From assembly GCA_964385675.1 (NCBI GenBank), contig CAYLSF010000001.1, forward strand, positions 53,651 through 117,650: a stretch of DNA of 64,000 nt, in the 5' to 3' direction. The translations under genes and the position numbers were made by a program. This DNA comes from an uncultured Saprospiraceae bacterium. Its GTDB lineage: Bacteria > Bacteroidota > Bacteroidia > Chitinophagales > Saprospiraceae. Every line of letters begins with the position of its first letter. Position 1 is the stretch's first letter. Below, one piece after another: positions 9,411 to 51,211 of this stretch. The notes under the pieces were generated by a model that was not told the DNA's origin, did not search any database, and saw only the letters and a list, made by a program, of their open reading frames with translations.

Positions 9411-11078
9411 TTAGTATGCATTTTCATCGAAAACCCTAAGGATGTTACCAATATACTTATTACGCTTTATGTCCTCGTATCCCATTTGAACAACATTACA
9501 GCCCTTTATATTGTTTTTACCAAAATGGTCTACACAAAACTCTAGACCATTGTCTTCATGATATGTGTCTTTTTGTTTTATATCTCCAATAACAACACAA
9601 TGAGTATTATGTCCCATTCTACTAATAAATGTTTTAATCTGAGTTGGGTCGCAATTTTGAGCTTCGTCTAAAATCATTATTGCGTTATGGTATGTATGAC
9701 CACGAATCATTTCTACCGGAATAATATCAATTTTGTTGTCTTTTAGTGCTTTATAATAGTCTTGTGCTAAGAAATCTTGTAGATATGCATGTATAAACAT
9801 AAAATAGGGTTTGGATCTTTCTTCAAGCGTCCCCGGAAGTGATCCTATTTCCCTGCCAACATTGACCAAAGACCTGCTAATAATGATTTGATCGATGTGG
9901 TTTTGCTTTAGTTGATTGACTGCCGTTTGTAGTGTAAATAAAGTATTGTGTGTAACAATAAAATTATCAGTAAGGTATAGATGGTCTTTTGAATCTATAT
10001 AAATACATTGTGTTTTTTTGTTTTTTGTCTTTTTAATAGACTTTATAATTCTTTGTGGCTGATACTTTGTTTTAGGGATGTGCGCCTGTTTTTTTCTAGG
10101 TAAGGCGAAGGGACATATATTCTCCGGCATAGAAATCCACACTCTATAGGCTCTATGTCCTTCTTGCTGTCTGTCATTATAAGTATACTTTGGTGTTCTA
10201 TCCGTAATCGTTGCCTTGCCACCTAACGACTCAACTATAAATTTGACATCATTAGCGAGGACTTCGGAAGTTGTGCAAAAATTAGAGTTATATCCATCGG
10301 TCGTACCATCTGTATCCATCAGTCCTTGTAAAACTTTTTTTCTTACTAATACTGTATTGTATTTATAGCAATCTGGAATATGCTTATAATACGATGTTGT
10401 ATTCAAATTTAATTTTTTAAGTTCTTTTTGAAGCTTGCCGCCAGATCTTAAGTAGTAGCTCATACCGTCTTTTTTAGCGGTATATTCTATCTTAAATTTA
10501 TTATATCTTCGTTCATTGGTAAATTTTTCTAATATCCACTTATCTTTAGTTGTAAAACACGGAGTGGTACCCGTAAGCGAGCCGTCGCCTATTAAGGCTC
10601 CCAAAATATACGGACTTATATTAACATCTTGTTTGTCAAATTCAACGGGCTTGGTTTGCGGTATGCTGAGACTTGCTTTTGGATATTTTTCTAAATACTG
10701 TATAATCTGTTCCGTAGTCCAGATGCTTCCGTCTTGATCTTTAGAACGGTTTTCTTGTGTAAAAATTTTCCATAGGTGTTGTCCACAACACTCAGTGTAA
10801 GAATTATCTGAAAACCATATTTGATATACTGGCGTTTCTCCTTGGGGGAATATGCCTAGAACCTTTGCTGATTTTCCATTTGGGGTAGAAACCCTATCTC
10901 CAACTTTCAACTCGCCCATTTTAGCTGGGCCTTTTGGAGTATAAACTGTGGCATCTAGGGGCTGAGCTTTTCCAGTCCCGCTTGGCCCCGCACAGATGGT
11001 GACGTGTGAGTTAATAATACTAGTAATAAGCTCTTCTTGATTTTGTGTGGGCCTAAGTTCCATTTTGTAGCGTCTCAA
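9411..11078 (-). CDS. phoH: PhoH-like ATPase interrupted by an intein
   Basis: The P-loop is split: GPSGTGK|[intein]|TLFTLQ. The C-extein carries ILDEAQN and VVIGDIKQKD, both PhoH-type motifs. Confidence 0.85.
   Translation of the reverse strand: MRRYKMELRPTQNQEELITSIINSHVTICAGPSGTGKAQPLDATVYTPKGPAKMGELKVGDRVSTPNGKSAKVLGIFPQGETPVYQIWFSDNSYTECCGQHLWKIFTQENRSKDQDGSIWTTEQIIQYLEKYPKASLSIPQTKPVEFDKQDVNISPYILGALIGDGSLTGTTPCFTTKDKWILEKFTNERRYNKFKIEYTAKKDGMSYYLRSGGKLQKELKKLNLNTTSYYKHIPDCYKYNTVLVRKKVLQGLMDTDGTTDGYNSNFCTTSEVLANDVKFIVESLGGKATITDRTPKYTYNDRQQEGHRAYRVWISMPENICPFALPRKKQAHIPKTKYQPQRIIKSIKKTKNKKTQCIYIDSKDHLYLTDNFIVTHNTLFTLQTAVNQLKQNHIDQIIISRSLVNVGREIGSLPGTLEERSKPYFMFIHAYLQDFLAQDYYKALKDNKIDIIPVEMIRGHTYHNAIMILDEAQNCDPTQIKTFISRMGHNTHCVVIGDIKQKDTYHEDNGLEFCVDHFGKNNIKGCNVVQMGYEDIKRNKYIGNILRVFDENAY
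9945..10967 (-). mobile_element. Intein (341 aa) with LAGLIDADG homing endonuclease, in the PhoH P-loop; class-3-like
   Basis: Starts AQPLDATVYT (Ala1) and ends IVTHN|T. LAGLIDADG motifs ILGALIGDGS and LQGLMDTDGT. Coordinates come from residue counting and were checked against codons. Confidence 0.8.
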
Positions 11079-14017: not shown

Positions 14018-14142
14018 TTATCTTTATTCTTATAGTCCTGTATTCTTTTTTTCAATTTCCATAAATGAAATCCAAGGATAATAAAAAATCTTCTTATTAA
14101 TCGTTGTACTTTTCTCTTTTGCCTTCTGGTATACTTATTCAT
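14014..14142 (-). CDS. Small basic/hydrophobic ORF (42 aa), translationally coupled on both sides
   Basis: Below the track cutoff. Its ATG overlaps the nrdJ stop (TAATG) and its TGA overlaps the next ATG (ATGA). Translation MNKYTRRQKRKVQRLIRRFFIILGFHLWKLKKRIQDYKNKDK. Confidence 0.4.
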   Translation of the reverse strand: MNKYTRRQKRKVQRLIRRFFIILGFHLWKLKKRIQDYKNKDK

Positions 14143-17100
14143 TACACAATCTCACAAGCTCCACCAGAACAGGCCTGACCTGATAAAGTATCAGCATCTG
14201 TAAACTCAGGCCCACAATCCATCGACTCCCAATTTACATTTTGATATTCTCTAGATAGGTCACACCAAGACTTCCAAAGAAAAACGTGCTTGCAGCAATA
14301 GGTTGCTTTTCTCTCGTTGTTATCAAAGTACCTTTGTGCAAATTGCTTAAGCCTTCTTACCCAGTCTTTCTTCAGCTCATGCTTGTCATAAGCTTCTCTC
14401 TCTTCAAAGTATTTAGCTAAATCTTTGTAATTTCTAGTCTTAGGGTATTGTGGCTCTTTAGGCTTTTCATTATCTAGTGAATTATCTATACCTAAAGCAC
14501 AATTACAAGCTAGCCATAAATCATCAAATGCTTCTAAGCCAGCGGTAATAAGTCCGCTAGCAAATACGGCTGCGTCTCCATATTCTTTTACTAGCTCATT
14601 AGGAGTTAGCACAGTAGAGAAAGGAGCTTGAGCATAGTCTAAGTCGCCACTTGAAGGTAGCAATGATATACCACTAAAATACTCTCTATTATCATAGATA
14701 TACTTTTCTACTTCGTCCCACTCTTCTTGTTGAACGATAATAGTGTTAGATATATTATGGGTAATGTCTGGGTTAAGCCCTCTGTTTTTTATTGTGCCCG
14801 GTAGGACCCAATTCTTTTGAGCAAACTTAACTTTTTCTAAGAAGTCAATAGCGCTTAGTTGATTTTTTACAATAGAACCAGGAGGAACTTCGCAAATAAA
14901 CGAAATTACTTCATCGCTATTATTAGCGTCCCAAACAGAATTTTCTACTGCATTTGGATTAAACTTTTTAAAGTGCTGTAGAGCGCTGTCTTGTTTATTA
15001 GATTGAACTCTTCTAATATATCTTCTAGCATGATGAGGATGTATACCAGAAGAAGTACTAAGAATACAAGATGTTGATCCAGATGGTTTGGCGCATGTTA
15101 GTCTAGCAGCAGGATTGATACCTATTAGCTTAGCTATTTTTTCATTTGTTTTTTTGATAATCTTTACGCCATTTTTTAGTATCTTTTCATCAAAGAAAAT
15201 ATGAGGATTAGACATCCATCCTGTAATAGAGCAGCCAAGCAATGACTCATGCTGAACTATTTTTTCTGTTGTTTCACCTAGATATGGGAAGCTATTATAA
15301 CCAGCCTGAAGAGTTCCTATAATTGCTGATGCTTCGCATTGCTCATAAAACTTTTCTGGAGTGTCACAGTACCCACCATTAATATCTGTAAGATTACAGA
15401 AGCTCATTCCTGTATCACCGTTTTCTAACTGTGGCCAGAATCCGATTTCACAATTATGAAGTAAAAATCCATTACCATCAAAAGACGATGTGCTGGGCAC
15501 TGTACAGTCATATACCTTTTTCTCTTCTAGTAACTTAATTGAATTAATCGTTACTTGAAACTTATCCTTATTAGGAGATCTTTTATATTGACTTATTAAG
15601 TCGATTAGCTTATTTTGCTTTTCTTTATTATTAAAACCAATATACTCATTAAATTTAACTATCGATTCATTGGAAATGACTAAATCGTGCCAAGCTTTAC
15701 ATAGATATTGTTTATATGCCCCCTTTCCATCCGGCATAAGTTTATATCTATCGTCTTCTCTGTTGGTGTAAATCTTGGAGAAGATTCCAATTTTTTGGAG
15801 AATCTGTTGCGCTATTTTAAGATTATTTAGGTTTGTCGAGCATAGTCTAACTGATATGCCTTTGTTTTGATTTCCTTGGACTGATCCGTCTGCATCAAAC
15901 CAACCTTTTAGTAGTCCTTCGCAAAAATTAGACGAACAAGACCATATATTTTTATTTATATTTTTGTTACTTAATATGTCAAATCTGTTAATAAGACTTG
16001 TTAGGTAGTTAGATTTTACTCTTGTGCTTTTAACACCATTAATATTAACAGACTTATATTCTGATATGTCGCATTGACCGTGAGCATTTGTTAAATATTC
16101 AGCGGCAAGCTTAGGCATATATGATTCTTCTTGGCCCCAATACTGAAGGTAATGTTGATTTTGATCGGAGGTTCCGTCTCCAAGATACGAACCAATAAGC
16201 CATCCTTGTTCTTTCTCGCCATATCCTTCCCATGTATTGTAACCTGGGTTATTGATTTCTACAACATCACCTATATTTAGGTCTTTTAGCTCTATCCATT
16301 GACCATTAGACATAAATCTATGATCATTTGTTACTTCTACACTAAAACCTTCCTGCGTAGAAACTTCCCAAAGTACCTTAGATCCAGATTCAAAAAATCC
16401 TTCTTCTGATGAATTAGCATGTTTACCATTTATGATAGTTGTAAATTCTTTTCCTACTAACTCTCCAGCGGTTTTGATGCCTTTAGTTGTATGGACAAGA
16501 GTATTTTCCGAAACGCAGCAAGGATTACAGCTCACAAATTCTGGATCTTCACAAAAATAAACACCCGGCTCACCATATTCACGAACGTTCTTCATGATTT
16601 CTTTATAATCATCAAACGAAATATCATTTCTATTAATAACTACAGAATTATTAGCCCTGGCTCTTTGTGGATTATCAATGAACCAATTCCCAGTTTTGCA
16701 CGCTGCCATTTCTAGGTCGTTTTCAGAAAAAAGACTAATCAAAGCAGATCTTCTTAATCCGGCGCTAATAACAAAATCAGCCGCGTGACAGATAATATCA
16801 TGACAATCAAGCGGAGATAATCTATCTTGATTTGCTTTAATTTTATCTTCTAGTAGTTTTTCAATCTTTATAAGACCATTTTTAAGAGGTTCAGAGCCGG
16901 GAGCTTTAAATCTCTTTGCTATAAGAGCGCCCTTTGGTCTAATCTTAGAAAAATCAAATACTACTTTTTTGTTTTTATACTCTGGAAACGTAGTATTTTT
17001 ACTAAAGAAAGATGATAGTAAAACGCCCACTGAGTCTGCCCACCCCTCACACGAGTCTGGGATTACAAACTTCTTTGTGGAATTAGACCTTTTTGTTATT

Positions 17101-17492
17101 TTGGGTAGCTTTTTTACATGGTGTTTTTGTACGCTATATCCCGCGCCACAGCCCGCCATCAAAACAAATACTATGTCTTGAAATGCTTTGGGCTTGTCAA
17201 TTAGGGTGCCAGTACAATTATATAGCCTTTCATTTTTATCTAAAATAGGGCTGCCACCATATTGAAGCGCCCTCTGAGACCCTAGAGTGCGCTTTTTTTC
17301 GTATTGTTTTTGCGCAAAAACGACAGCATTTTTAAGCTCATCGGAAGCTTCTATTTGTTCCTTGTACTTTTCTCTATGCATATCAAAAATTCGGTCGACC
17401 GCCTCTGACCAAATTTCTTTTCTATTTTTATCATAATTAAATTGTGAGTATCTAGATTGAAATGTATATTCTGAAAGTGCTTGTATGCTCAT
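14142..17492 (-). CDS. nrdJ: Ribonucleotide reductase, class II (NrdJ-like), interrupted by an intein
   Basis: Single 761-aa extein. The active-site NPC|[intein]|CEI junction matches the class II NPCGEI motif. C-terminal redox Cys pair CSGGAC. No NrdB partner in the window. Confidence 0.8.
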   Translation of the reverse strand: MSIQALSEYTFQSRYSQFNYDKNRKEIWSEAVDRIFDMHREKYKEQIEASDELKNAVVFAQKQYEKKRTLGSQRALQYGGSPILDKNERLYNCTGTLIDKPKAFQDIVFVLMAGCGAGYSVQKHHVKKLPKITKRSNSTKKFVIPDSCEGWADSVGVLLSSFFSKNTTFPEYKNKKVVFDFSKIRPKGALIAKRFKAPGSEPLKNGLIKIEKLLEDKIKANQDRLSPLDCHDIICHAADFVISAGLRRSALISLFSENDLEMAACKTGNWFIDNPQRARANNSVVINRNDISFDDYKEIMKNVREYGEPGVYFCEDPEFVSCNPCCVSENTLVHTTKGIKTAGELVGKEFTTIINGKHANSSEEGFFESGSKVLWEVSTQEGFSVEVTNDHRFMSNGQWIELKDLNIGDVVEINNPGYNTWEGYGEKEQGWLIGSYLGDGTSDQNQHYLQYWGQEESYMPKLAAEYLTNAHGQCDISEYKSVNINGVKSTRVKSNYLTSLINRFDILSNKNINKNIWSCSSNFCEGLLKGWFDADGSVQGNQNKGISVRLCSTNLNNLKIAQQILQKIGIFSKIYTNREDDRYKLMPDGKGAYKQYLCKAWHDLVISNESIVKFNEYIGFNNKEKQNKLIDLISQYKRSPNKDKFQVTINSIKLLEEKKVYDCTVPSTSSFDGNGFLLHNCEIGFWPQLENGDTGMSFCNLTDINGGYCDTPEKFYEQCEASAIIGTLQAGYNSFPYLGETTEKIVQHESLLGCSITGWMSNPHIFFDEKILKNGVKIIKKTNEKIAKLIGINPAARLTCAKPSGSTSCILSTSSGIHPHHARRYIRRVQSNKQDSALQHFKKFNPNAVENSVWDANNSDEVISFICEVPPGSIVKNQLSAIDFLEKVKFAQKNWVLPGTIKNRGLNPDITHNISNTIIVQQEEWDEVEKYIYDNREYFSGISLLPSSGDLDYAQAPFSTVLTPNELVKEYGDAAVFASGLITAGLEAFDDLWLACNCALGIDNSLDNEKPKEPQYPKTRNYKDLAKYFEEREAYDKHELKKDWVRRLKQFAQRYFDNNERKATYCCKHVFLWKSWCDLSREYQNVNWESMDCGPEFTDADTLSGQACSGGACEIV
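15453..16517 (-). mobile_element. Intein (355 aa) with LAGLIDADG homing endonuclease in the RNR active site
   Basis: Starts CVSENTLVHT and ends GFLLHN|C. LAGLIDADG motifs LIGSYLGDGT and LLKGWFDADGS. Boundary codons checked in the DNA. Confidence 0.85.
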
Positions 17493-18115: not shown

Positions 18116-18673
18116 TTATTTTAATAATTCCTTAAAAATATCTAGATTTATTTCAACTTCTTCTACTTCCAGTTGATATTGCGTGAGGTATTTTAGAAGT
18201 TCAAATTGCTCTTTATGAGCCGTATTTTGCATACATACTGGTTTGTTATGTACTTTAGGAACGTAGATTTTAGCGATTCCTGCTTGCCAAAGTTTTTGAT
18301 AACATGGGCAACATGGATACCCAGTAATATATGCTATACAACCTTCTGTTGGAGAGCCTTTTCTAGCTGCATTTATTATACAATTATCTTCAGCATGTAA
18401 GAAGTATTTTTCCTTAGAAATTACAATATCTTTATTATATTCGTAATTTGGTAGGAGTTTATCGTTTATACCTCTGAGAACGCCGTTATAGCCCTCTGAG
18501 ACGATATTATTATTCCTCACAAAAATACACCCACATTTTGTTCGTGCGTCATGTGAGCGTAATGAGGAGATCTGAGCATGCATCAGCCATTTGCTATGCC
18601 AATCTATTCTTTTAGAAGTCTTATTTAGATTTAGAGTATTTACTTTCTCTATTATCTCTTCTGGCTTTCTCAA
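18116..18673 (-). CDS. dCMP deaminase
   Basis: Zinc motifs HAEDNCI and PCCPCYQKL. TTG start according to the track. Confidence 0.8.
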   Translation of the reverse strand: MRKPEEIIEKVNTLNLNKTSKRIDWHSKWLMHAQISSLRSHDARTKCGCIFVRNNNIVSEGYNGVLRGINDKLLPNYEYNKDIVISKEKYFLHAEDNCIINAARKGSPTEGCIAYITGYPCCPCYQKLWQAGIAKIYVPKVHNKPVCMQNTAHKEQFELLKYLTQYQLEVEEVEINLDIFKELLK

Positions 18674-19161: not shown

Positions 19162-19665
19162 TTACCTCATGGCTACTAGGAGGTTATCATCAAATATCAT
19201 AGGAGCTTTTGTTCCTACTAGAGTATTTTCTACAATCATAGGGGCCTGAACGCCAACCAAACTAACGCTACCACAGTCACAGTCTACACATTCGCACGGA
19301 TCACAATTGCACTCAGTAAGATTATTCTTAGTTAGAGGGCAGACCTTTCTTCCATTTTCGTCTATATAGCAGTCATTGATTGGGCTTTGATTCTTTTGTT
19401 CTATGTATTTAGATGCGCTGTAAGATGACCGCTGAGATAATCTCTGCGCTCTTGAAGCGCGAATCATTTCTCTATTTGATCTAATTCTTTGAAAGAGACT
19501 TCTAATGGGCCTTATTCTAGATTCTGACCTACCAAAAACTCGAACTAAAACGTTTTTAGCGCGACCTGAAAAGACTCCACATGATCCACTGTTACACTGT
19601 GAATAGGCTAAATTGGCCGGCGCAAGTAAAATACAAGCTAATAATACCGCTGTAAAAGTTTTCAT
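19162..19665 (-). CDS. Secreted Cys-rich protein
   Basis: Signal peptide MKTFTAVLLACILLAPANLAYS. Cys cluster CNCDPCECVDCDCG. Confidence 0.55.
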   Translation of the reverse strand: MKTFTAVLLACILLAPANLAYSQCNSGSCGVFSGRAKNVLVRVFGRSESRIRPIRSLFQRIRSNREMIRASRAQRLSQRSSYSASKYIEQKNQSPINDCYIDENGRKVCPLTKNNLTECNCDPCECVDCDCGSVSLVGVQAPMIVENTLVGTKAPMIFDDNLLVAMR

Positions 19666-20444
19666 TTTGTTTCCTTGTTGTAAGTTACTATCATTTGATT
19701 TAGTATATCCATTAATTCTAATGAATCGTTGGGGACGCTATGAAAAGTATCGTCTGAATTTGTTATAAATTGTCCCTTATTATTTAATACACAAATAACA
19801 GGGCCTGTAAAAGTAGAAATACCATCTTGTGTAGTCACATTGCTGGTGCCAATAGCCCTCGATGCCCAAGCATTTTCATACTCAGGTAAGGACATTTTCC
19901 CCCACAAAGGCACAAAATTTTGATCTACAAAGCCTATAATTTCTTCATTATCCCAGATATCTGAAGGGCTATCTGATGATAGTAATATAAGTACAGCTTT
20001 GTTTTCTTGCGATGCTTTTGCTAGTGATTCTGGACTATTACCTAGCCAACTTATTGTTGACTCAGCTAAAAAATCTTCTGTTTCATCTATGTCTAATATT
20101 ACCTCTCCTCTTTTTTTGTCCTTCCATATCCTAATAACCTCATTTAAGCTTTCTTGATTGTTTCCATCTTCATTATAATCACAATATGGACAATCTCTTC
20201 TCGGTCGACCATCGCCAAAAAAGCCTTGTTGCCCACACTCTTGACAATCTTTCGTTTTTGTTGCTTCTTCAGGACTAGGCTCTGGATCAGGACTAGGCAC
20301 AGATACTCTATCTATACTAGTGCCACCCGCACATACAACTACATAATTTAAGTATTTATCAGGCGAGGGCTTAGGTATAAAAATATTTTCTTTACACCCA
20401 ACGCAAATTACTGAGATTAATAATAATATATATATTTTATTCAT
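19662..20444 (-). CDS. Putative lipoprotein or secreted protein
   Basis: I prefer the ATG at 20444 (MNKIYILLLISVICVGCKE), which is signal-peptide and lipobox-like and lies 1 nt after the upstream stop. The track start is 20471. Confidence 0.5.
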   Translation of the reverse strand: MNKIYILLLISVICVGCKENIFIPKPSPDKYLNYVVVCAGGTSIDRVSVPSPDPEPSPEEATKTKDCQECGQQGFFGDGRPRRDCPYCDYNEDGNNQESLNEVIRIWKDKKRGEVILDIDETEDFLAESTISWLGNSPESLAKASQENKAVLILLSSDSPSDIWDNEEIIGFVDQNFVPLWGKMSLPEYENAWASRAIGTSNVTTQDGISTFTGPVICVLNNKGQFITNSDDTFHSVPNDSLELMDILNQMIVTYNKETK

Positions 20445-20445
20445 T

Positions 20446-22635
20446 TTATACTGCATGGGGTGATAAATCATCTAGTTCTTTTCTTTCCCATCCATTCAGT
20501 CCTGAAATAGCGGTCATATATCTTCGTTGAACATCTTTCCAACGCGCCCAAAATGAACCATGTGGAATTTCTATGTCTGAGTTTAGAATTTCTCTGGGTC
20601 CGTCGTTCCATCTGCCCCAGCTATTTAATACCAAGACTAAAGGTCCGCCATACTTTTGATGAGTTTCTCTTCTGTCATCAAAACCAATATATGTCATTGC
20701 GTGTGCCCAGTTTCCTTTTCGTCTAGAAACGCCGTTTTCATCCCTTTGCGACGAAAATCCTTCTGAGCCACACGTTATAATAAAAAAGCCTCTATTTAGA
20801 AAGTCGCGAACTTCTTCTGCCGTGTTAAGTTCTGTAGCAGTTCTAAACAAATTATTATCTAAATGCTCGCCTATTCTTTCAGGAGGAGCTTTTTTACCGT
20901 ATTTTCCAGCTATTTTTCCCGAGTATTTTTCTAAGTTTACTCCAAGAGTATCTGTGTAATCTGCTCTTAATAAAGCTCCACAGTTATTTACTAAAACTCT
21001 GGCAGCGGCAGGGCAATACCAGCCATCTCCGTTATGACCACGATACCAGTAAATTGGCTCAAATGCCAATACTCTGTTTCTTTCCGCTGTCTTAGAGACT
21101 TTAGGACACTCTTCTAATCTTCCTGTTACTTCATCTGGTATTCCTAATACAGATTCTAATACCATTGTTCCCAAAGCAGCGTTTTGCGCGGCGTCGGCAA
21201 CGCAATTATGTACACTAAATCCATCGACTATTAAAGAATGGTCGTCTTCTACGGTTACACAGTATACATCACCAGAATAGTCTTGCTTATCTATGTTTTG
21301 TATTCGTACGGGTATCCCATAAGGATTATTGTTAATCTCTATTTGTAGAGTTTCTGGCTCCTGTTTTTTGACAGCTAGTGCGTTGTCACCATAAAAATTT
21401 AGACTAAATGACTCTCTGCTTTGTTTATAAGCTTTTCTAATATTAATGGAACATCTTAAGCCACAGCTATTTGCAATTTCTTGCATAGATTCTATCAAGG
21501 GCTTAGAGACAGATACACCTATAGTTTTGGTAGATTTTTTTGTTTTTTCTATCCCAGCCTGAAAGTATCCATCTCCATCTATCCAGCCTTGGAGTAATGA
21601 TAGTTTTGTTTGTTTGGGACATTTAAGAATTTGGTGGGGCGCTTTTTTACCATATGTATTTTGACATCCTCCCAAACTATATAATAGCTGCGCCAAACCC
21701 ACATTCCCAACTCTAATTTTTGTACAATTGCTAGAATTTGTTTGGGTTGTACAATTTAATCCGAACACATCTTTAATGTATTTAGAAATTTTATTTTGAT
21801 AATAGTATTCTTTGGAACTTAGGGAAAATGTTACTCTTTTAGGTTTTCCTGTATCAGATTTATCAATTGATCCTTCTGCTAAATATGCTCCTATAATATA
21901 AGCTAGTTTATGATCTAATTTAATAAATCTTGGTATGTCATTTTTACTACCTAATGACCGGCAATTTTCTTTATTGGGCTTTTTGTTTCGTTTACAATTC
22001 TTCTCAGTAATGTCACATCCATATTCAGTCATATCAAACCAAACATCTTCTTGTTGTATGTTTGGCTTTCCTAATACTAAATACTCTCCTTTTTTAACGT
22101 CTTTTAGTTGCTTTTTAACAAAATTTGTATCTGAAGGAGATTTAATTACTGGAACTTCATGATCTGGCGTCGCCACCAAGCTCCTATGATAATTAGATAC
22201 ACTTACTGATAAAAGTCCGTCTTCTGCACTTTTAGTAATTAGGTGTGTTACTGTCTTAGTATTTCCAAGGTGGGTAATAACCTTATCTCCAATAGATATT
22301 TGTTCTATTGGTTTTTTAGAGCCGTCTGCCATTAAAACCATAGCGCCCGCTTTAAAACATGATCCACGAGTTTGACCAGGGCCCGGTAAAGATTCTGGGT
22401 ACTCTTTTAATACATGCACAAATGGTACTACAAGCTTACCTTTAGCATTGTCTGCAAAACCATATGCATGAGCAGCGTCTGTTCCAAACGCATATTCCGC
22501 CTCATCTCTCAGAGCTTCTTTTTCTTCTTCTGAATATAAGGCTCCAGCAAAACCGCCTTCATACATTTTAATAATGTCTTTGCAGCTTTTATCTTGCTTG
22601 GGATTTTGGTCCCACTGTTTGAATAATTTAGGCAT
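20446..22635 (-). CDS. Papain-like (C1-type) cysteine peptidase interrupted by an intein at the catalytic Cys
   Basis: The extein reads GQTRGS|[intein]|CVADAAQN, giving Gln and Cys spaced as in papain. Then NWAHAMTYIGF (His) and VLNSWGRW (Asn-Ser-Trp-Gly). Confidence 0.65.
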   Translation of the reverse strand: MPKLFKQWDQNPKQDKSCKDIIKMYEGGFAGALYSEEEKEALRDEAEYAFGTDAAHAYGFADNAKGKLVVPFVHVLKEYPESLPGPGQTRGSCFKAGAMVLMADGSKKPIEQISIGDKVITHLGNTKTVTHLITKSAEDGLLSVSVSNYHRSLVATPDHEVPVIKSPSDTNFVKKQLKDVKKGEYLVLGKPNIQQEDVWFDMTEYGCDITEKNCKRNKKPNKENCRSLGSKNDIPRFIKLDHKLAYIIGAYLAEGSIDKSDTGKPKRVTFSLSSKEYYYQNKISKYIKDVFGLNCTTQTNSSNCTKIRVGNVGLAQLLYSLGGCQNTYGKKAPHQILKCPKQTKLSLLQGWIDGDGYFQAGIEKTKKSTKTIGVSVSKPLIESMQEIANSCGLRCSINIRKAYKQSRESFSLNFYGDNALAVKKQEPETLQIEINNNPYGIPVRIQNIDKQDYSGDVYCVTVEDDHSLIVDGFSVHNCVADAAQNAALGTMVLESVLGIPDEVTGRLEECPKVSKTAERNRVLAFEPIYWYRGHNGDGWYCPAAARVLVNNCGALLRADYTDTLGVNLEKYSGKIAGKYGKKAPPERIGEHLDNNLFRTATELNTAEEVRDFLNRGFFIITCGSEGFSSQRDENGVSRRKGNWAHAMTYIGFDDRRETHQKYGGPLVLVLNSWGRWNDGPREILNSDIEIPHGSFWARWKDVQRRYMTAISGLNGWERKELDDLSPHAV
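21205..22359 (-). mobile_element. Intein (385 aa) with LAGLIDADG homing endonuclease
   Basis: Starts CFKAGAMVLMADGS and ends GFSVHN|C. LAGLIDADG motifs IIGAYLAEGS and LLQGWIDGDGY. Boundary codons checked. Confidence 0.8.
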
Positions 22636-23255
22636 TACTTATATGGTCTTAAAGGAATGTTTTTAAGATCTGGATCAAATTCATTAGCTATATCTTTACA
22701 AGTCGCAATAAGACTTTCTCTAACATTAGTCGATGGATCATCAATTCTGACCGCTGGATCGAGAGTGCCAGTGGCTACTTTAAGCTTTTTATTAATAGGT
22801 TCATTGATAGCACTAATACCAACTATATTTTGGGATCTTTGAAAACCTATCATAGCATCTGCATGAAGCTTGTCAAAATCACCTATTGTTTTAATCACGG
22901 GCTCTTCTCTTTGTCCTTGTACTGGATGCTTATCTGATTCAAGATAAAAGGCAAGACTGTGATATAAAGAGCCAAGCTCATCTGCTCCTGCTGGGCTTAC
23001 TAAGCTTCTCAATGTATTATCTATTGGGAAAACAGGCGTGGGCTGAGGAGCGGGCATAGGTGGATTATAATCGTCTCTCTTATCATAAACGATATATCCA
23101 ACTAAAGCAATAACAACAACCCATTGTAGCTTAAGCTTTTGTACCGCTTCCCAAATGCTAATTTCATTTGAAACTGTAGGACTTGGTACATTGGGGCCAA
23201 TAATATTCCGCTGTGGAATTCTTGGGGAAACTTCATTATTTGTAGGCTTAATCAT
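22635..23255 (-). CDS. Membrane protein (single N-proximal TM segment)
   Basis: Hydrophobic segment WVVVIALVGYIVY. I prefer the ATG at 23255 (MIKPTNNE, 8-nt overlap) to the track start at 23297. Confidence 0.5.
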   Translation of the reverse strand: MIKPTNNEVSPRIPQRNIIGPNVPSPTVSNEISIWEAVQKLKLQWVVVIALVGYIVYDKRDDYNPPMPAPQPTPVFPIDNTLRSLVSPAGADELGSLYHSLAFYLESDKHPVQGQREEPVIKTIGDFDKLHADAMIGFQRSQNIVGISAINEPINKKLKVATGTLDPAVRIDDPSTNVRESLIATCKDIANEFDPDLKNIPLRPYK

Positions 23256-23607
23256 TATTTTCTTCTTGTTTTTGTGGTGTAGGAACAACATAAACAAAGA
23301 TACCGTCTACTTCTAGATGGGCACTTACAGTTGGCCAAGCTATATCTAAGAACTTATCATCTTGTAAAGATAGCTCACCTGCTTCACAGCTGTTAGCATA
23401 GCCTAAATAGGTTTCCTTCCCCTGCTCATTTTCATACCATCCTGGCCACACAACATCACCAACCCAAAAAATAATCTTTCTTAAGACCGTTGGAGAACCC
23501 TTAAATGTTGTAGACCCATCATGGTTTTCTACAAAGACAACATTAGGATTAGTAGGAAAGTTATTTTCTTGTGGTTTAATAGTCAAGTCTGGCATATTAA
23601 TCTCCAA
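23248..23607 (-). CDS. Hypothetical protein
   Basis: 119-aa ORF. GGAG lies 8 nt upstream of the ATG. Confidence 0.5.
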   Translation of the reverse strand: MEINMPDLTIKPQENNFPTNPNVVFVENHDGSTTFKGSPTVLRKIIFWVGDVVWPGWYENEQGKETYLGYANSCEAGELSLQDDKFLDIAWPTVSAHLEVDGIFVYVVPTPQKQEENND

Positions 23608-24053: not shown

Positions 24054-24845
24054 TCAGCTTTCTGTGGTATTTACTGTTGATCCGCCTAAGTTATATGTAG
24101 TTTTTTTGGCCCCAATAGAAGCGTCTGTGCCTAGAATAGAAGTATCGTCTCTTTCAATAGGATCGACGGCCCAAGAGCCAGAATATTCGTTCCAATTACC
24201 GGCGCGAATACCAGAAGCTGTCATTACAGTTCTTAGCGCTTCTGTTTGGTTAACGTTTCTATTTGGGCCTGTTGCAGCGCCTTGGATAGCATCGTTAGTT
24301 GAATTGGCTAATGACGCAACTCCAATTTGAATAAATTTATTATCTTCGCCGCTCTTAAATACATCGTTTGTTAAGAGCCAAGCTCTTTCGCCGGACGAAG
24401 TAAAGTAAGTTGATGACTCGGCTACAAGCAAGTTTGTTCCATCTTCTGTTTTGAAGAAAACGGTGTCATTAGGATTACTATCCGTACCAAAGCTAGCAAC
24501 AGTAACAACTTTACCCGTATTTGTGAGAATAGAATCGCCTACTTTAAGCGTAATTGACAAACTAGTAGTATATACTAGGCCAAAATTGGAACCTCCAACA
24601 TCGTTAGATGAGTAAGAGCCGCCGATATCTGTTAAAGGAGTTCCATATGTATATCCAAATAGAGATGGCTTAACAGTAGATGGCTCATTGTCTGGATTGC
24701 TAGCAGCTGTAATATTGGCAGCTGAGTCAGTAGCAACTGTACCACCAACAAATCTAGTTTTCTTATTATTAGGCTGAGAACTAATAGCTGAGCCCGCAGT
24801 ATCGTAGATAGTAGTGGCTACTTGTGAGTTTGCAATAGTAGACAT
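24054..24845 (-). CDS. Ser/Thr/Gly/Asn-rich putative virion structural protein, paralog A
   Basis: Cys-free, low-charge composition. Shares its N-terminus and the C-terminal block RTVMTASGIRAGNWNEYSGSW..PIERDDTSI with the neighbouring gene. Confidence 0.5.
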   Translation of the reverse strand: MSTIANSQVATTIYDTAGSAISSQPNNKKTRFVGGTVATDSAANITAASNPDNEPSTVKPSLFGYTYGTPLTDIGGSYSSNDVGGSNFGLVYTTSLSITLKVGDSILTNTGKVVTVASFGTDSNPNDTVFFKTEDGTNLLVAESSTYFTSSGERAWLLTNDVFKSGEDNKFIQIGVASLANSTNDAIQGAATGPNRNVNQTEALRTVMTASGIRAGNWNEYSGSWAVDPIERDDTSILGTDASIGAKKTTYNLGGSTVNTTES

Positions 24846-24878: not shown

Positions 24879-25637
24879 TTAGTAGCTTACGCCTGTAGGT
24901 ACATTTGAACCAAATTGGTAGTTTACGAAACCATTACCAGAAAAAGCGGTATCAGTGGCTGGGTTGACAATACTAGTATCATCTCTTTCAATAGGCTCAA
25001 CTGTCCAGCTGCCAGAATATTCATTCCAATTGCCCGCTCTAATGCCTGATGCTGTCATAACGGTTCTAATAGACTCTGAGTTGTTTACATCTCTATTAGG
25101 AGTGGTTGATCCGCCTTCTATGGCTTTGTTGGCCTCTCCAGCTAAAACATTACTGGATGTGAATAATACTTGATAATCTCTATCTTTAAATGCGTCTTTT
25201 CCTAGTAGATAAGATTCTGATCCCGCCCCGGTTCCTATATTTGCTGAAGCTGTACTTTGTGGTATGTTAACATCTAGTGCGGTATCACTTAATATTCTGG
25301 TTACTTTCCCTAAGTTACCAGACTTATTAAAGAGTATAAAGTCTCCTATGGCCGCGTTGTGAGACGAGCCAAAAGTAACAACAGTATTTTGCCCATTTGC
25401 ACCAAGAGACGATACCGTTCCAATAAGCGTGCCATTATATACTTGTGCAATAGACTGATTAATATCAGATGTCTCAATCTTTGTAGCTTGTCTAAAAACA
25501 GCGTTGTCGCTAGATGAAGTTCCAGGACCAGACGCAGATGTCTTATCTAAGGTAGGTTGTGAGGAATCTGAAATTGCAGCGCCACTCGCAGTAAATAAAG
25601 TAGTTGCTACGGCAGAATTAGAAATTTTTGTTGTCAT
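24879..25637 (-). CDS. Ser/Thr/Gly/Asn-rich putative virion structural protein, paralog B
   Basis: Start chosen at MTTKISNSAVATT by alignment with paralog A (MSTIANSQVATT). The track start is 25658. Confidence 0.5.
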   Translation of the reverse strand: MTTKISNSAVATTLFTASGAAISDSSQPTLDKTSASGPGTSSSDNAVFRQATKIETSDINQSIAQVYNGTLIGTVSSLGANGQNTVVTFGSSHNAAIGDFILFNKSGNLGKVTRILSDTALDVNIPQSTASANIGTGAGSESYLLGKDAFKDRDYQVLFTSSNVLAGEANKAIEGGSTTPNRDVNNSESIRTVMTASGIRAGNWNEYSGSWTVEPIERDDTSIVNPATDTAFSGNGFVNYQFGSNVPTGVSY

Positions 25638-25680
25638 AATAAAATATCCATTGTGCAAAGACTGTCTATGGTGATATACA

Positions 25681-26164: not shown

Positions 26165-26827
26165 TTACGCCCAATCTAGCGCTTTGGATACAATGGGAAA
26201 CTGAGAAACAAATATTTTTTTAATTAATTCTGCTATTTCTCGGTGTTCTTTTTGAGTATCTTCTTTTGTTCTAAGGTTTATATAGTGAATCCAACTTCTT
26301 ATTGATCCTTTCATATATAATTTTGTCGTAGAAGCCATAGGCATGATCATCCTAGCAGATTCTCTAGCAACTCCTGCATCTATTAGCTTGTTATAGCAAT
26401 CTTGAGTATCTTGTAAAACTTGCTTAATTTTCTCGTCTGCTTTTGTAGAATCTGATAGACTAGGGTTTATAATGTCTTCTCCTACCTGACGATTTGTTTT
26501 ACCCTGAGATCTTAATTCTATGTGTTGTATAGATGGAACTTTTGAATACCTTTGAGAAAATTCTTGAAATGAGAAACTTCTATGCCTAATAATCTGTGCA
26601 GCTATAGCTCGACTAGTTTCAACAGACACGCACATATCTACCATTTCAAATATAGACCAGTGTCCGTGTCTTATACAAAAATTTAATAGCTTAGGAGCTG
26701 TTTCATGATTATGCTGATTACTTGGATTAGAAACTCTTGCGCAATATGCTATCAACTCTTCTGGGTTGTTGTTATAATCTGATGGCTGAGTAACAGATAT
26801 TAATTCTACTTTATCTTTATTAGTCAT
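26165..26827 (-). CDS. thyX: FAD-dependent thymidylate synthase ThyX
   Basis: ThyX signature RHRSFSFQEFSQRY. 220 aa. Confidence 0.9.
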   Translation of the reverse strand: MTNKDKVELISVTQPSDYNNNPEELIAYCARVSNPSNQHNHETAPKLLNFCIRHGHWSIFEMVDMCVSVETSRAIAAQIIRHRSFSFQEFSQRYSKVPSIQHIELRSQGKTNRQVGEDIINPSLSDSTKADEKIKQVLQDTQDCYNKLIDAGVARESARMIMPMASTTKLYMKGSIRSWIHYINLRTKEDTQKEHREIAELIKKIFVSQFPIVSKALDWA

Positions 26828-27984: not shown

Positions 27985-29067
27985 TTACTCTAGGTCTAAG
28001 TTAACCTCTCTTTCTTTGACCTTTAAAGATTCAGTTAATATATCGACACAATTATCCCAGTTATAGTACGATATTACATTTTCATAACCAGGGTTATCTC
28101 TAATGTTATTTCTAAAGCAATATCTCATATGCTCTATAAATTGATCTTTTTGCTCTGTCCCTATATTGGCCCATTCAAATTGACCATAAAACCATTTGCC
28201 ATCTATAGCAGGCGTTAGCTTTTGGATAGGGACTTTCAAGCTATTGTTTGTTTGGCAAATTTCAGCTTGAGCCGAGTAATCTGTCGTAATAACAGGCCTA
28301 TTTGATGCTATAGTTTCTAATATTCCTAGTCCAAATCCTTCTGATCTGGTAGGATATATGCCACAATGACAGCTTTTTATTAACTCGGCCACTTCATGAT
28401 GATACTGTGTTCTAATAAAATGGATCTTGTGTCCTAGTGGTGAATTTTTATACAGCCTCTCCCATGTCTCTTGTTCTTCCTTATGGATGAACGGATTATC
28501 CCATTTTATATATAGTTGAACATCATCTTTTTCAGTAAAAGCATTATTAAATAGCTCAACTAGAATGTCGTGACCTTTGCGTTTTTCTAGTTTACCTGTG
28601 GAAAAGAATTTATAGGTTTCTGAGTCATTAGGTTCGGAAGGCTTAAAGATTTCATCATCTGCTCCCATTGGAAGAACTTCACAAGTAGTATTGCAATGTT
28701 CTTCAACAATATTCTTGGCCCATTTAGAAGCAACATATAAATAATCTAATGAGTTAATATGATTGACAGCTCTTTGATTAAGTTTATTTCCCTCAAAAAA
28801 GGTGAGGGCTGTATTTAAAGTATTGCTAAATCTGGCGGCTAAGTCAAACTCATGCCATATTTTCAAAGAAGGATTTTGCCCGTTATATGTGTCTGCATTT
28901 TTTATTGAAGCGTTCCAAGCATTATTAACAGCAGGCGACTCTATATCGGGATTGCCAATAGGAAACAGACAAACATGGTGCCCTTTTTGGTATAAGGTTT
29001 TTAAGATATTGGTGGCAACGCAGCCATAGCCAGTTTTATTGATTCCCGCGCTTAAATTTATATTCAT
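27985..29067 (-). CDS. Glycosyltransferase, GT-B fold (GT4-like)
   Basis: C-terminal EGFGLGILETIASNRPVITTD, an EX7E-type motif. Confidence 0.75.
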   Translation of the reverse strand: MNINLSAGINKTGYGCVATNILKTLYQKGHHVCLFPIGNPDIESPAVNNAWNASIKNADTYNGQNPSLKIWHEFDLAARFSNTLNTALTFFEGNKLNQRAVNHINSLDYLYVASKWAKNIVEEHCNTTCEVLPMGADDEIFKPSEPNDSETYKFFSTGKLEKRKGHDILVELFNNAFTEKDDVQLYIKWDNPFIHKEEQETWERLYKNSPLGHKIHFIRTQYHHEVAELIKSCHCGIYPTRSEGFGLGILETIASNRPVITTDYSAQAEICQTNNSLKVPIQKLTPAIDGKWFYGQFEWANIGTEQKDQFIEHMRYCFRNNIRDNPGYENVISYYNWDNCVDILTESLKVKEREVNLDLE

Positions 29068-35498: not shown

Positions 35499-35530
35499 TA
35501 TTTTTATCCTTATGTTTGTGTATAAGAAGT

Positions 35531-35601
35531 ACGCTAGCCCCGAATCGCACGGAGAACTATTGGTTGGAAGCCAATTATTTTTCTAGTTAAACTACTAGCG
35601 C
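35531..35601 (-). tRNA. tRNA-Gly(UCC)-like gene with non-canonical T-loop
   Basis: Hand-folded 71-nt cloverleaf in an ORF-free, locally GC-rich gap. The acceptor stem is 7 bp with G1-U72 and the D stem is 4 bp. The anticodon stem ATTGG/CCAAT has loop CU-UCC-AA, and the T stem is CTCCG/CGGGG. T-loop is UGCGAUU (G55) and the D-loop lacks GG. No CCA is encoded. Confidence 0.55.
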
Positions 35602-48261: not shown

Positions 48262-48465
48262 TTACAGTGTATTTTCTTCTTCTTTATAGTTATCAATAGC
48301 ATTTACTAATGCATCTTCAAAAGATTTCCCAATCATTTGCCTCGGAGTACGAAGTACAAAAGTGTTTTTATCGCTCGGATTTTTAGGACTTATAATCAAG
48401 GCGTATTTCTTTAGTACCTTGATAAGGTCTTCTGTCAAGTCGACATTAAAATCTTGGGTCTCCAT
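48262..48465 (-). CDS. Hypothetical protein
   Basis: 67-aa ORF overlapping the pnkp stop by 20 nt. Confidence 0.45.
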   Translation of the reverse strand: METQDFNVDLTEDLIKVLKKYALIISPKNPSDKNTFVLRTPRQMIGKSFEDALVNAIDNYKEEENTL

Positions 48466-50944: not shown

Positions 50945-51211
50945 TTATTGTTGCAAAAATTGTAGTTTTTCTATAATAGAATTTTTCAACCCCAACTCAT
51001 TAAATAGCGGTATATATCTAGTAATGATGCTTTCTGTATTAAAACCTGCCTGTTCTCTACCGGATAGAATACCGCAAATTTCATAGCGTACAGCTTTAAG
51101 AGTGTTATAGATTAATATTGCATATGCCACATGTTTAGTCTCTAAAAAATATTTAGATATTGTTAATACAAACGCCCCATGTTGTAGGTATGTTATTAAC
51201 TGTATCGCCAA
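50945..51211 (-). CDS. Hypothetical protein (doubtful start)
   Basis: 88-aa ORF between hen1 and pnkp with a 59-nt overlap onto the hen1 3' end. Confidence 0.3.
   Translation of the reverse strand: MAIQLITYLQHGAFVLTISKYFLETKHVAYAILIYNTLKAVRYEICGILSGREQAGFNTESIITRYIPLFNELGLKNSIIEKLQFLQQ

Follow-up and report, generated by a model that had tools for sequence, protein, structure and literature searches.

A class 1 intein inserted at the proposed catalytic cysteine of a phage-borne papain-fold peptidase

A 729-aa open reading frame in the stretch of DNA analysed here (64,000 nt, hereafter the window) is best read as a papain-fold peptidase interrupted by an intein at its catalytic cysteine, and we give this reading a probability of roughly 0.85. 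What is new, as far as it can be read from the sequences, is a large phage-borne peptidase family, an intein hotspot within it, further inteins at other sites and a conserved three-gene module. The precursor starts at an ATG that overlaps the stop codon of the upstream gene (TAATG), and its parts are the following:

20446..22635, minus strand: precursor ORF as called, comprising N-extein, intein and C-extein, 729 aa
22360..22635, minus strand: N-extein, aa 1-92, ending ...PGPGQTRGS and containing Gln88
21205..22359, minus strand: intein, aa 93-477, 385 aa, CFKAGAMV...GFSVHN
22054..22359, minus strand: N-terminal Hint (splicing) region, intein residues 1-102, which aligns with the mini-intein of locus L097
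21388..22053, minus strand: LAGLIDADG homing-endonuclease domain, intein residues 103-324, exactly what the L097 mini-intein lacks
21205..21387, minus strand: C-terminal Hint region, intein residues 325-385, with blocks F and G (VYCVTVEDDHSLIVDGFSVHN)
20446..21204, minus strand: C-extein, aa 478-729, plus the stop codon

Excision of the intein joins GQTRGS to CVADAAQN and yields a product of 344 aa, as a re-check of the codons confirmed. Cys478 (codon at 21202-21204) is at once the +1 residue of the intein and the proposed catalytic cysteine, and it becomes Cys93 in the spliced numbering. Likewise, His645 (20701-20703, in NWAHAM) becomes His260, while Asn671 (20623-20625) and Trp673 (20617-20619), both in VLNSWG, become residues 286 and 288. 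Gln88, an invariant residue proposed to form the oxyanion hole, is encoded at 22372-22374.

A preliminary description of this DNA had placed an intein at residues 93-477 of the ORF, and these limits were borne out by domain matches, by the predicted fold and by intein-free homologues. The insert matched the Pfam families Intein_splicing (50.9 bits, gathering threshold 35.8), Hom_end_hint (42.4 bits, threshold 32.1) and LAGLIDADG_3 (35.5 bits, threshold 22.5), and the NCBIfam model TIGR01443 (intein_Cterm) matched at aa 456-478 with 29.4 bits (threshold 15.6). All class 1 residues are present, namely C93 (Cys1), T156-P-D-H159 (block B, TPDH, aa 156-159, window 22159-22170), H476-N477 and C478 (+1). 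The two LAGLIDADG motifs, LAYIIGAYLAEGS (aa 244-256, window 21868-21906) and LSLLQGWIDGDGY (aa 345-357, window 21565-21603), retain their acidic residues. The GC content of the intein is 0.334, against 0.41 for both exteins. The AlphaFold model of the precursor (pLDDT 87.2) matched the TliVMA intein (E 1.9e-20, TM 0.76) and PI-SceI (E 3e-18), and Foldseek matches for the endonuclease part were I-DmoI, I-SceI and PI-SceI.

The best structural matches thus come from VMA1-type class 1 inteins (PI-SceI of S. cerevisiae, TliVMA, PhoVMA), which share with the window intein the initial cysteine, a TxxH block B, the His-Asn end and the +1 cysteine, and which likewise nest the endonuclease between two Hint halves. 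The N-terminus of the window intein, CFKAGAMVLMADGSKKPIEQISIGDKV, resembles that of PI-SceI, CFAKGTNVLMADGSIECIENIEVGNKV, and the first ∼70 residues of the N-terminal Hint region align with it; overall identity to this group, however, is only about 13-19%. The hosts also differ, since VMA1-type inteins interrupt the catalytic subunit of the V-ATPase and not a peptidase, whereas the window intein is phage-borne. By its motifs and its predicted fold, the insert is a canonical class 1 intein with a LAGLIDADG homing endonuclease, and it would be expected both to splice and to cleave. A bacterial intein-like (BIL) or non-splicing Hint domain was also considered and rejected, as the insert has the full set of canonical intein residues and its +1 residue belongs natively to the extein. 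It is very unlikely that the intein is dead and the gene a decaying, non-functional allele: the confidence of the model does drop at both splice junctions (aa 90-92 and 477-480), but low junction pLDDT is expected in a precursor, the frame is intact, no canonical splicing residue and neither LAGLIDADG acidic residue is missing, and the window extein retains every residue that is invariant in the family.

The insertion point is marked by relatives that carry no insert. A homologue search found 316 sequences, and nearly all of the 120 listed were 336-375 aa long. Hundreds of intein-free homologues of ∼345 aa are continuous across the junction QxRG[DS]|CV, and alignments showed them to be colinear through it. 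In two close relatives a shorter intein occupies exactly the same position. At locus L098 the gene is intein-free (junction ...CAGACCAGAGGTTCC|TGCGTAGCAGATGCC...), and at L097 it contains a mini-intein of 164 aa; the two exteins share 80.6% identity, and the genes around them follow one another in the same order and are almost equal in size. The window intein can be described as that of L097 with an endonuclease domain of 222 aa added. By pairwise alignment and motif rules, we delimited 38 alleles at the cysteine site, 14 of them mini-inteins (<200 aa) and 24 full length; Cys1, the terminal Asn and the +1 Cys were found in 38/38. Further inteins in the family immediately follow the catalytic His, or the catalytic Asn or its NSWG motif, or precede Cys156. 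Taken from these allele positions, the peptidase family is an intein hotspot.

Inteins are nonetheless scarce in the family, occurring in one of the 80 best IMG/VR loci and in two of the 120 best clusters. The inteins of P0151 and P0156 are closer to their counterparts than the exteins are; that of P0151 shares 57-70% identity with the window intein, against only 47% between the exteins. The coexistence of full-length and mini alleles, together with this conflict between intein and extein identity, favours selfish homing. The intein is best seen as a selfish homing element that is aimed at the best-conserved DNA within the gene, passes from phage to phage during co-infection, decays to mini-inteins and is lost.

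To the extein, structure gave a clearer answer than sequence. The AF2 model of the spliced extein (pLDDT 95.6, pTM 0.93) gave 106 Foldseek matches in the PDB at E <= 1e-3, and the top 50 were all papain-family proteins, including xylellain, cathepsin B, papain and Lpg2622. The structural alignments spanned about 260-390 columns, and the mature targets are about 208-330 residues long. Matches in BFVD included Peptidase_C1 phage proteins. By contrast, the Pfam model Peptidase_C1 (PF00112) matched 0/85 family members at E <= 10, nor did it match any of 10 further members of greater divergence, so that the earlier description of the extein as a papain-like peptidase held for the fold but not for membership of the Pfam family. 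Likewise, the spliced extein matched no Pfam, NCBIfam or PHROG family, phmmer and hmmsearch found no match among PDB sequences, and tblastn and blastn searches with the extein against GenBank phages added no annotation. On its predicted structure, the extein is a papain-fold (clan CA-like) protein and not a demonstrable sequence member of family C1.

Profile-profile comparison extended this picture to individual residues. An extended hhalign alignment paired Q88, C93, H260 and N286-S-W of the spliced product with Q19, C25, H159 and N175-S-W of papain, at a probability of only 23%. Against papain or five C1 enzymes, hhalign gave a low-probability C-terminal alignment (overall probability 18-35%) and reached the cysteine region only in relaxed local mode, a result that is consistent with the fold match but is not independent proof of it; in -glob mode it gave no meaningful alignment with the C1 enzymes. 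Q88, C93, H260, N286 and W288 are invariant in 85/85 aligned family members. In the model, Cys93 is the first residue of a long helix (93-112), like Cys25 of papain, and strands 254-268 and 281-285 lie in the region of His260 and Asn286, which are placed on the β-barrel lobe. Conservation, alignment and fold match thus jointly support the proposed assignment of the catalytic Gln, Cys, His and Asn.

These data also bear on what had been said of the active site beforehand. The proposal that the +1 nucleophile of the intein is the catalytic cysteine agrees with the invariance of this residue, its predicted position at the start of the helix and its pairing with papain Cys25. The His (NWAHAM) and Asn-Ser-Trp-Gly (VLNSWG) contexts are present as described, with the residues invariant in 85/85 members, whereas the Gln stated to lie six residues before the Cys actually lies five before it (Q-T-R-G-S-C). 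In this respect the phage peptidase differs from papain, in which the spacing between Gln19 and Cys25 is six. With the papain family (MEROPS C1: xylellain, cathepsin B, papain, Legionella Lpg2622) it shares the two-lobed fold and the order of Gln, Cys at a helix N-terminus, His on a β-strand and Asn-Ser-Trp-Gly; it differs in being only about 12-16% identical, in being encoded by phages, in being without a signal peptide and in belonging to a fixed three-gene module. The cysteine region aligns with papain only under relaxed settings, and the family has further nearly invariant cysteines, so the +1 Cys might be merely structural and the true nucleophile lie elsewhere, for example at Cys156 or Cys237. 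We regard this as highly improbable, given that Cys93 is invariant, comes after the invariant Gln88 and stands at the start of helix 93-112, just like Cys25 of papain, and that every top PDB match is a papain-family enzyme.

With the intein at the catalytic cysteine, the following course of splicing can be proposed from class 1 intein chemistry. Cys1 of the intein would perform an N-S acyl shift at the Ser92-Cys93 bond of the precursor, and the N-extein would then be transferred by transesterification to the thiol of the +1 Cys (Cys478). Cyclisation of Asn477 would free the intein, and an S-N shift would link ...GQTRGS with CVADAAQ.... One thiol would thereby serve twice, as splicing nucleophile first and as catalytic nucleophile afterwards. 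The protease is expected to be inactive before splicing, because only splicing would bring Gln88 to within five residues of Cys93 where the central helix begins, facing His260 and Asn286. From the anatomy of the precursor, splicing is expected to be an obligatory maturation step.

Whether this step is also a regulated one is a different matter. The intein blocks the active site fully, both splice-junction nucleophiles are cysteines, a thioredoxin-like lipoprotein is a conserved neighbour and redox-sensitive inteins have been published (the DnaB intein), all of which would suit a removable zymogen lock, sensitive to redox state or timing, that sets the moment of peptidase activation, e.g. at lysis. 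Such a switch is unlikely: most family members are intein-free, so the enzyme works without it, and selfish homing, which we prefer, agrees with the presence of both full-length and mini alleles and with the discrepancy between intein and extein identities.

At 50% identity the peptidase family has 1360 representatives, and at least 488 of its loci occur in IMG/VR; the family is linked to Planctomycetota-binned contigs. The preliminary description had placed the gene among secreted, lipoprotein and membrane genes; these neighbours proved real and conserved across loci. In the window they are:

22635..23297, minus strand: partner A, conserved, upstream of the peptidase; likely start ATG at 23255
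19662..20471, minus strand: partner B, conserved, downstream; lipoprotein-like, with lipobox ICVGC and a CxxCxGxG...CxxC zinc-finger motif
19162..19665, minus strand: small secreted Cys-rich protein with a signal peptide and a CNSGSC motif, also found at L012 and L003

Partner A carries in its N-terminal third a signal-anchor-like hydrophobic stretch, LQWVVVIALVGYIVY, which was read from the sequence and falls just under the prediction cut-off. A homologue of partner A lies within 1.5 kb upstream of the peptidase in 92/97 loci, and in P0076 the two are fused; a homologue search with the window copy returned the query itself alone. Partner B lies directly downstream of the peptidase in 77/97 loci. 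Its window copy had no Pfam match, and its homologues at L014 and L001 matched Thioredoxin_7. PHROG and Pfam scans of the partners at other loci yielded only sub-threshold matches to Thioredoxin_7 and the DnaJ zinc-finger as functional names. The peptidase itself has an N-terminal hydrophobic segment in 0/80 unique sequences and no peptidoglycan-binding domain.

Partner A, the peptidase and partner B together make up the conserved three-gene module, whose position varies between loci. In the window it is surrounded by genes of nucleotide metabolism, in L014 and L016 it falls between the capsid genes and the tail genes, and in L011, a Pirellulaceae prophage, its place is just upstream of the terminase. 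In L015 a Phage_holin_4_1 gene lies three genes downstream of it, and in L002 a PG_binding_1 plus M10 peptidase and small membrane proteins lie upstream. The conserved secreted, lipoprotein and membrane neighbours make an envelope or lysis role plausible, and we tentatively propose, at somewhat less than even odds, that the peptidase targets the host envelope at a late stage of infection, in association with lysis. A prohead protease was considered separately and rejected, since neither the place of the gene, which is not between portal and capsid, nor the fold suits such an enzyme.

Papain-fold phage lysins act on the envelope at lysis. The CHAP, NlpC/P60 and Lysin A peptidase domains are, like the window peptidase, phage-encoded Cys-His hydrolases without a signal peptide, but they are small domains of a single lobe, mostly attached to modules that bind the cell wall, whereas the window peptidase has both lobes of a complete papain-like enzyme, exported partners that are separate proteins and a putative lytic function. 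The Cys-His-Asn machinery of the extein might instead serve an activity other than protein cleavage: that of an amidase or endopeptidase for peptidoglycan stem peptides, of a deamidase, or of an acyl- or transglutaminase-type enzyme. The missing C1 sequence membership, the exported partners and weak BFVD neighbours annotated as an N-acetylmuramidase fragment, peptidoglycan-binding-like and mycobacteriophage Lysin A point this way; the closest structures, however, are all true C1 endopeptidases, and the papain signature of Gln, Cys, His and Asn-Ser-Trp-Gly is complete, which leaves such an activity rather doubtful. This question concerns the substrate alone, and the intein finding is unaffected by it. 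The most far-reaching combination, a hotspot outside nucleic-acid metabolism with independent inteins at each catalytic motif and thiol-dependent splicing as a zymogen lock that times an envelope-degrading protease in lysis, we consider improbable.

The great majority of known intein hosts belong to the metabolism of DNA, RNA and nucleotides. The inteins of archaeal LonB sit in its ATPase part. The window itself carries two further inteins, one in RNR right after the NPC Cys and one in PhoH within the Walker A loop. The nearest relatives of the window intein in GenBank phages, at about 25% identity, are in Dmt, DNA polymerase III and RNR genes. Phage inteins in RNR, DNA polymerase III alpha, Dmt methylase and terminase likewise occupy the most conserved catalytic motif, but those hosts bind nucleotides or DNA, and the present host is a peptidase. 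Peptidases are not among the 19 intein host protein types of a 2025 actinobacteriophage survey, and peptidase hosts of the papain class are absent from the text of a 2016 cross-domain survey. In the open-access literature we found no published intein in a papain-like peptidase, in agreement with the earlier description, to which no intein allele in a C1-type peptidase was known. Inteins are cited in other proteases, the chloroplast ClpP of Chlamydomonas eugametos and archaeal LonB, and interrupt a protease precursor there as here. ClpP is a serine protease and LonB is listed in the citing literature as a P-loop NTPase, neither being papain-fold, and for neither does that literature report a catalytic nucleophile serving as +1 residue.

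A papain-fold host whose catalytic thiol would double as the splicing nucleophile widens the host range of inteins. The inteins found beside all three catalytic residues form a natural data set on why inteins settle in active sites and how they switch between sites. A naturally intein-caged cysteine protease could also serve as a template for splicing-activated proteases. For the phages themselves, this large unannotated gene family and the two exported partners that regularly accompany it are candidates for a module acting on the envelope or in lysis.

The peptidase gene of the window encodes a precursor interrupted by an intein, both on the minus strand:

20446–22635, minus strand: peptidase precursor ORF, 729 aa
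21205–22359, minus strand: intein, precursor residues 93–477, beginning CFKAGAMV and ending GFSVHN

Domains of the insert were called with Pfam gathering thresholds as the standard. Intein_splicing (50.9 bits, threshold 35.8), Hom_end_hint (42.4 against 32.1) and LAGLIDADG_3 (35.5 against 22.5) all exceeded them, and NCBIfam intein_Cterm passed at aa 456–478 of the precursor, which includes the +1 Cys. The insert carries Cys1, a TPDH block B, a His-Asn end and two LAGLIDADG motifs that keep their acidic residues (LAYIIGAYLAEGS and LSLLQGWIDGDGY). Modelled with AlphaFold in its full length, the precursor reached a mean pLDDT of 87.2; only the two splice junctions, some loops and termini scored low. 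The best PDB matches of this model were the homing-endonuclease inteins TliVMA (E = 1.9e-20, TM 0.76 on target), PI-SceI (E = 3e-18), PI-PkoII and PI-PfuI; free-standing LAGLIDADG enzymes ranked after them, and the extein part was still matched by xylellain and procathepsin B. The intein has a lower GC content than either extein (0.334 versus 0.41). These results bear out the intein limits proposed in the preliminary description. Removal of the intein fuses GQTRGS to CVADAAQN in a 344-aa product, as verified codon by codon. The gene carries a class 1 intein of splicing-competent anatomy that, taken alone, is ordinary.

That the intein interrupts the extein, as also proposed, was confirmed by comparison with intein-free homologues. 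A search with the spliced extein returned 316 matches; nearly all of the 120 listed were 336–375 aa long. The aligned homologues run without a gap across the junction Q-x-R-G-[DS]/C-V, and only two of them, P0001 (514 aa) and P0009 (497 aa), have an insert at the identical position. Two loci provide a closer comparison, one with an intein-free allele (L098) and one with a 164-aa mini-intein (L097). Extein identity between them is 80.6%, and the genes around the peptidase follow the same order and are nearly equal in size. Adding a 222-aa block, the endonuclease domain, to the L097 intein gives the window intein. Intein-free, mini and full-length alleles exist, as expected from the usual cycle in which an intein invades, loses its endonuclease and is then lost itself.

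The extein had no match in Pfam, PHROGs, NCBIfam or PDB sequences, nor among GenBank phages. Modelled in spliced form from an 85-sequence alignment (pLDDT 95.6, pTM 0.93), it gave 106 Foldseek matches in the PDB at E ≤ 1e-3, the best 50 of which belonged without exception to the papain family: xylellain (E = 1.2e-8), cathepsin B zymogens, papain, cathepsins S and L, Der p 1, rhodesain and Legionella Lpg2622. A viral structure library added matches to Peptidase_C1 proteins, from uncultured phages as well as giant viruses. Gln88, Gly91, Cys93, Trp258, His260, Asn286 and Trp288 (spliced numbering) are among the residues invariant in all 85 sequences. In the model, Cys93 begins a long helix (93–112) and His260 lies on a strand (254–268), an arrangement shared with papain. 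When the profile was compared with papain, whose query sequence was identical to PDB papain over its full length, WAHAM paired with VDHAV (His159) and LNSWG with KNSWG (Asn175-Ser-Trp177); an extended alignment also paired PGQ-TRGSC with NQGSCGSC (Gln19, Cys25) and GDGW with NGGY. Since the hhalign probability was low (18–35%) and the Cys region paired only in the extended alignment, the assignment of Cys93 rests on fold, conservation and colinearity jointly. From these we concluded that the +1 Cys of the intein is the predicted catalytic nucleophile, as the preliminary description had held; its papain-like label stands at the level of the modelled fold and catalytic motifs, yet the extein is no demonstrable member of Pfam Peptidase_C1, and the Gln it placed six residues before the Cys lies five residues before it (Gln88).

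This geometry suggests how the intein could affect the enzyme. The unspliced precursor would be inactive, because 385 residues part Gln88 and the N-extein helices from the Cys-bearing helix. Splicing, if it takes place, would use one thiol twice, for transesterification first and for catalysis afterwards. The endonuclease of the window intein may still home.

An exhaustive profile search yielded 1360 family representatives, clustered at 50% identity, which inflates the share of intein-bearing forms. Many of the best 150 were long proteins in which the profile hit two or three separate segments. At the Cys site we delimited 38 intein alleles of 122 to 426 aa (14 mini, 24 full length); all have Cys1, a terminal Asn and the +1 Cys, and 27 have the penultimate His. 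Inteins of the window and of two representatives are more alike than their exteins (57–70% versus 47% identity for P0151, 48% versus 36% for P0156), a difference in sequence identity that fits horizontal homing. Some representatives carry inteins elsewhere (spliced numbering):

Before Cys156 (GDGWY/C...HN/C): P0134
Directly after catalytic His260 (W-x-H/C...HN/C or S): P0156, P0252, P0264, P0239, P0240, P0255
Two residues beyond the His260 site (GN end): P0124, P0230
After Gly289 of NSWG: P0241, P0192, P0266 (truncated protein)
Directly after catalytic Asn286 (GQ/S end): P0236

P0156, P0264, P0192 and P0241 have two inteins each. Pfam confirmed intein, Hint or LAGLIDADG domains in most of the inserts outside the Cys site; it gave no match for the P0236 insert or the second P0241 insert, both called on junction motifs only. 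One intein type starts with C-x-S-x-DTE-[IV]-LT and ends in GN or GQ in place of HN. Carrying an intein is the minority state of the family: among the 80 best IMG/VR loci only L094 had one, a mini-intein at the Cys site, and among the 120 best clusters of the homologue search only 2 did.

Two further window genes contain inteins:

14142–17492, minus strand: class II ribonucleotide reductase (RNR), 1116 aa, with a 355-aa LAGLIDADG intein at 15453–16517
9411–11078, minus strand: PhoH, with a 341-aa intein at 9945–10967

The RNR intein directly follows the active-site Cys of the NPC motif (NPC/CVSENT...LLHN/CEIGFW), and the PhoH intein lies within the Walker A loop (GTGK/AQPLD...VTHN/T). The latter, with Ala first, Trp in GQHLW, Cys in TQCIYID and a T-H-N end, appears from these motifs to be a class 3 (WCT) intein containing a LAGLIDADG domain. 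Together with the peptidase, the 64-kb window has three inteins, each at a catalytic motif. In L012, a 117.8-kb contig colinear with the window (~14.1–31.4 kb) along the 21.5-kb stretch compared, the peptidase is interrupted by a mini-intein of 142 aa, and neither RNR (759 aa) nor PhoH (219 aa) has an intein.

The window belongs to a large phage. Every ORF of 150 aa or more lies on the minus strand, and besides RNR and PhoH the window encodes DnaB, primase and the following:

18116–18673, minus strand: dCMP deaminase, auxiliary metabolism
24054–24845 and 24879–25658, minus strand: two paralogous Ser/Thr-rich proteins of ~260 aa, just upstream of the peptidase module
26165–26827, minus strand: ThyX, auxiliary metabolism
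27985–29067, minus strand: GT4 glycosyltransferase, auxiliary metabolism
35529–35601: tRNA-Gly(tcc), the single tRNA
48446–50899 and 51153–52379, minus strand: Pnkp (kinase-phosphatase-ligase) and Hen1 methyltransferase, a phage-encoded RNA repair system
61752–63197, minus strand: NAMPT-like phosphoribosyltransferase, auxiliary metabolism

The Ser/Thr-rich paralogues had no family match; L012 has three copies. The peptidase family is present on 488 or more IMG/VR contigs, the longest of ~205 kb. Seven of the ten genome-collection (MAG contig) matches, L001–L010, are from Planctomycetota (Pirellulaceae, Kuenenia, Planctomycetia), and one match comes from a complete 7.8-Mb Pirellulaceae chromosome, where its surroundings are prophage-like and terminase, portal and capsid genes adjoin it. 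As the GC content of the window is only 34%, the host of its phage may differ from Planctomycetota.

The peptidase is part of a three-gene module, compared here across 97 related loci:

19162–20471 and 22635–23297, minus strand: conserved module neighbours of the peptidase

The upstream partner A, whose stop overlaps the peptidase start (TAATG) in the window, has a homologue within 1.5 kb upstream in 92 of the 97 loci and a hydrophobic anchor near the N-terminus in 68 of 76 unique sequences; the window protein was also found on a 142-kb contig. In P0076 partner A is fused to the peptidase, with a lipoprotein signal in front. Partner B, directly downstream in 77 of 97 loci, shows the motif CxxCxGxG...CxxC in 53 of 68 sequences; a lipobox is frequent. 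Its L014 homologue matched Thioredoxin_7 and that of L001 was just below threshold. Partner B is a predicted zinc-finger, thioredoxin-like lipoprotein. In some phages a small secreted CxSGSC protein follows. Functional annotation was found for neither partner nor for this small protein. The peptidases themselves lack a hydrophobic segment at the N-terminus in all 80 unique sequences. The anchored partner A and the lipobox of partner B agree with the earlier remark that secreted, lipoprotein and membrane genes surround the peptidase. At other loci, the module sits between head and tail genes (L014, L016), the third gene downstream, at the close of the late operon, is a Phage_holin_4_1 gene (L015), and upstream genes encode a peptidase with PG_binding_1 + M10 domains along with small membrane proteins (L002) or a subtilase (L003). 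On module make-up and these contexts, a late, envelope-directed (lysis-associated) role appears the likeliest single function, although we hold it at slightly less than even odds. We speculate that, for phages of Planctomycetota, getting through a protein-rich envelope with disulfide links might require proteases and a thiol-disulfide protein.

Open-access full-text literature yielded no intein in a papain-like or C1 peptidase, in line with the preliminary description, which knew of none. The only proteases named in a 2016 cross-domain survey are ClpP and LonB, and peptidases are absent from the intein hosts of a 2016 mycobacteriophage survey and from the 19 host protein types (~800 inteins) of a 2025 actinobacteriophage survey. 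The novelty lies in the host family, the site of insertion and the occurrence of inteins beside every catalytic residue of the peptidase.
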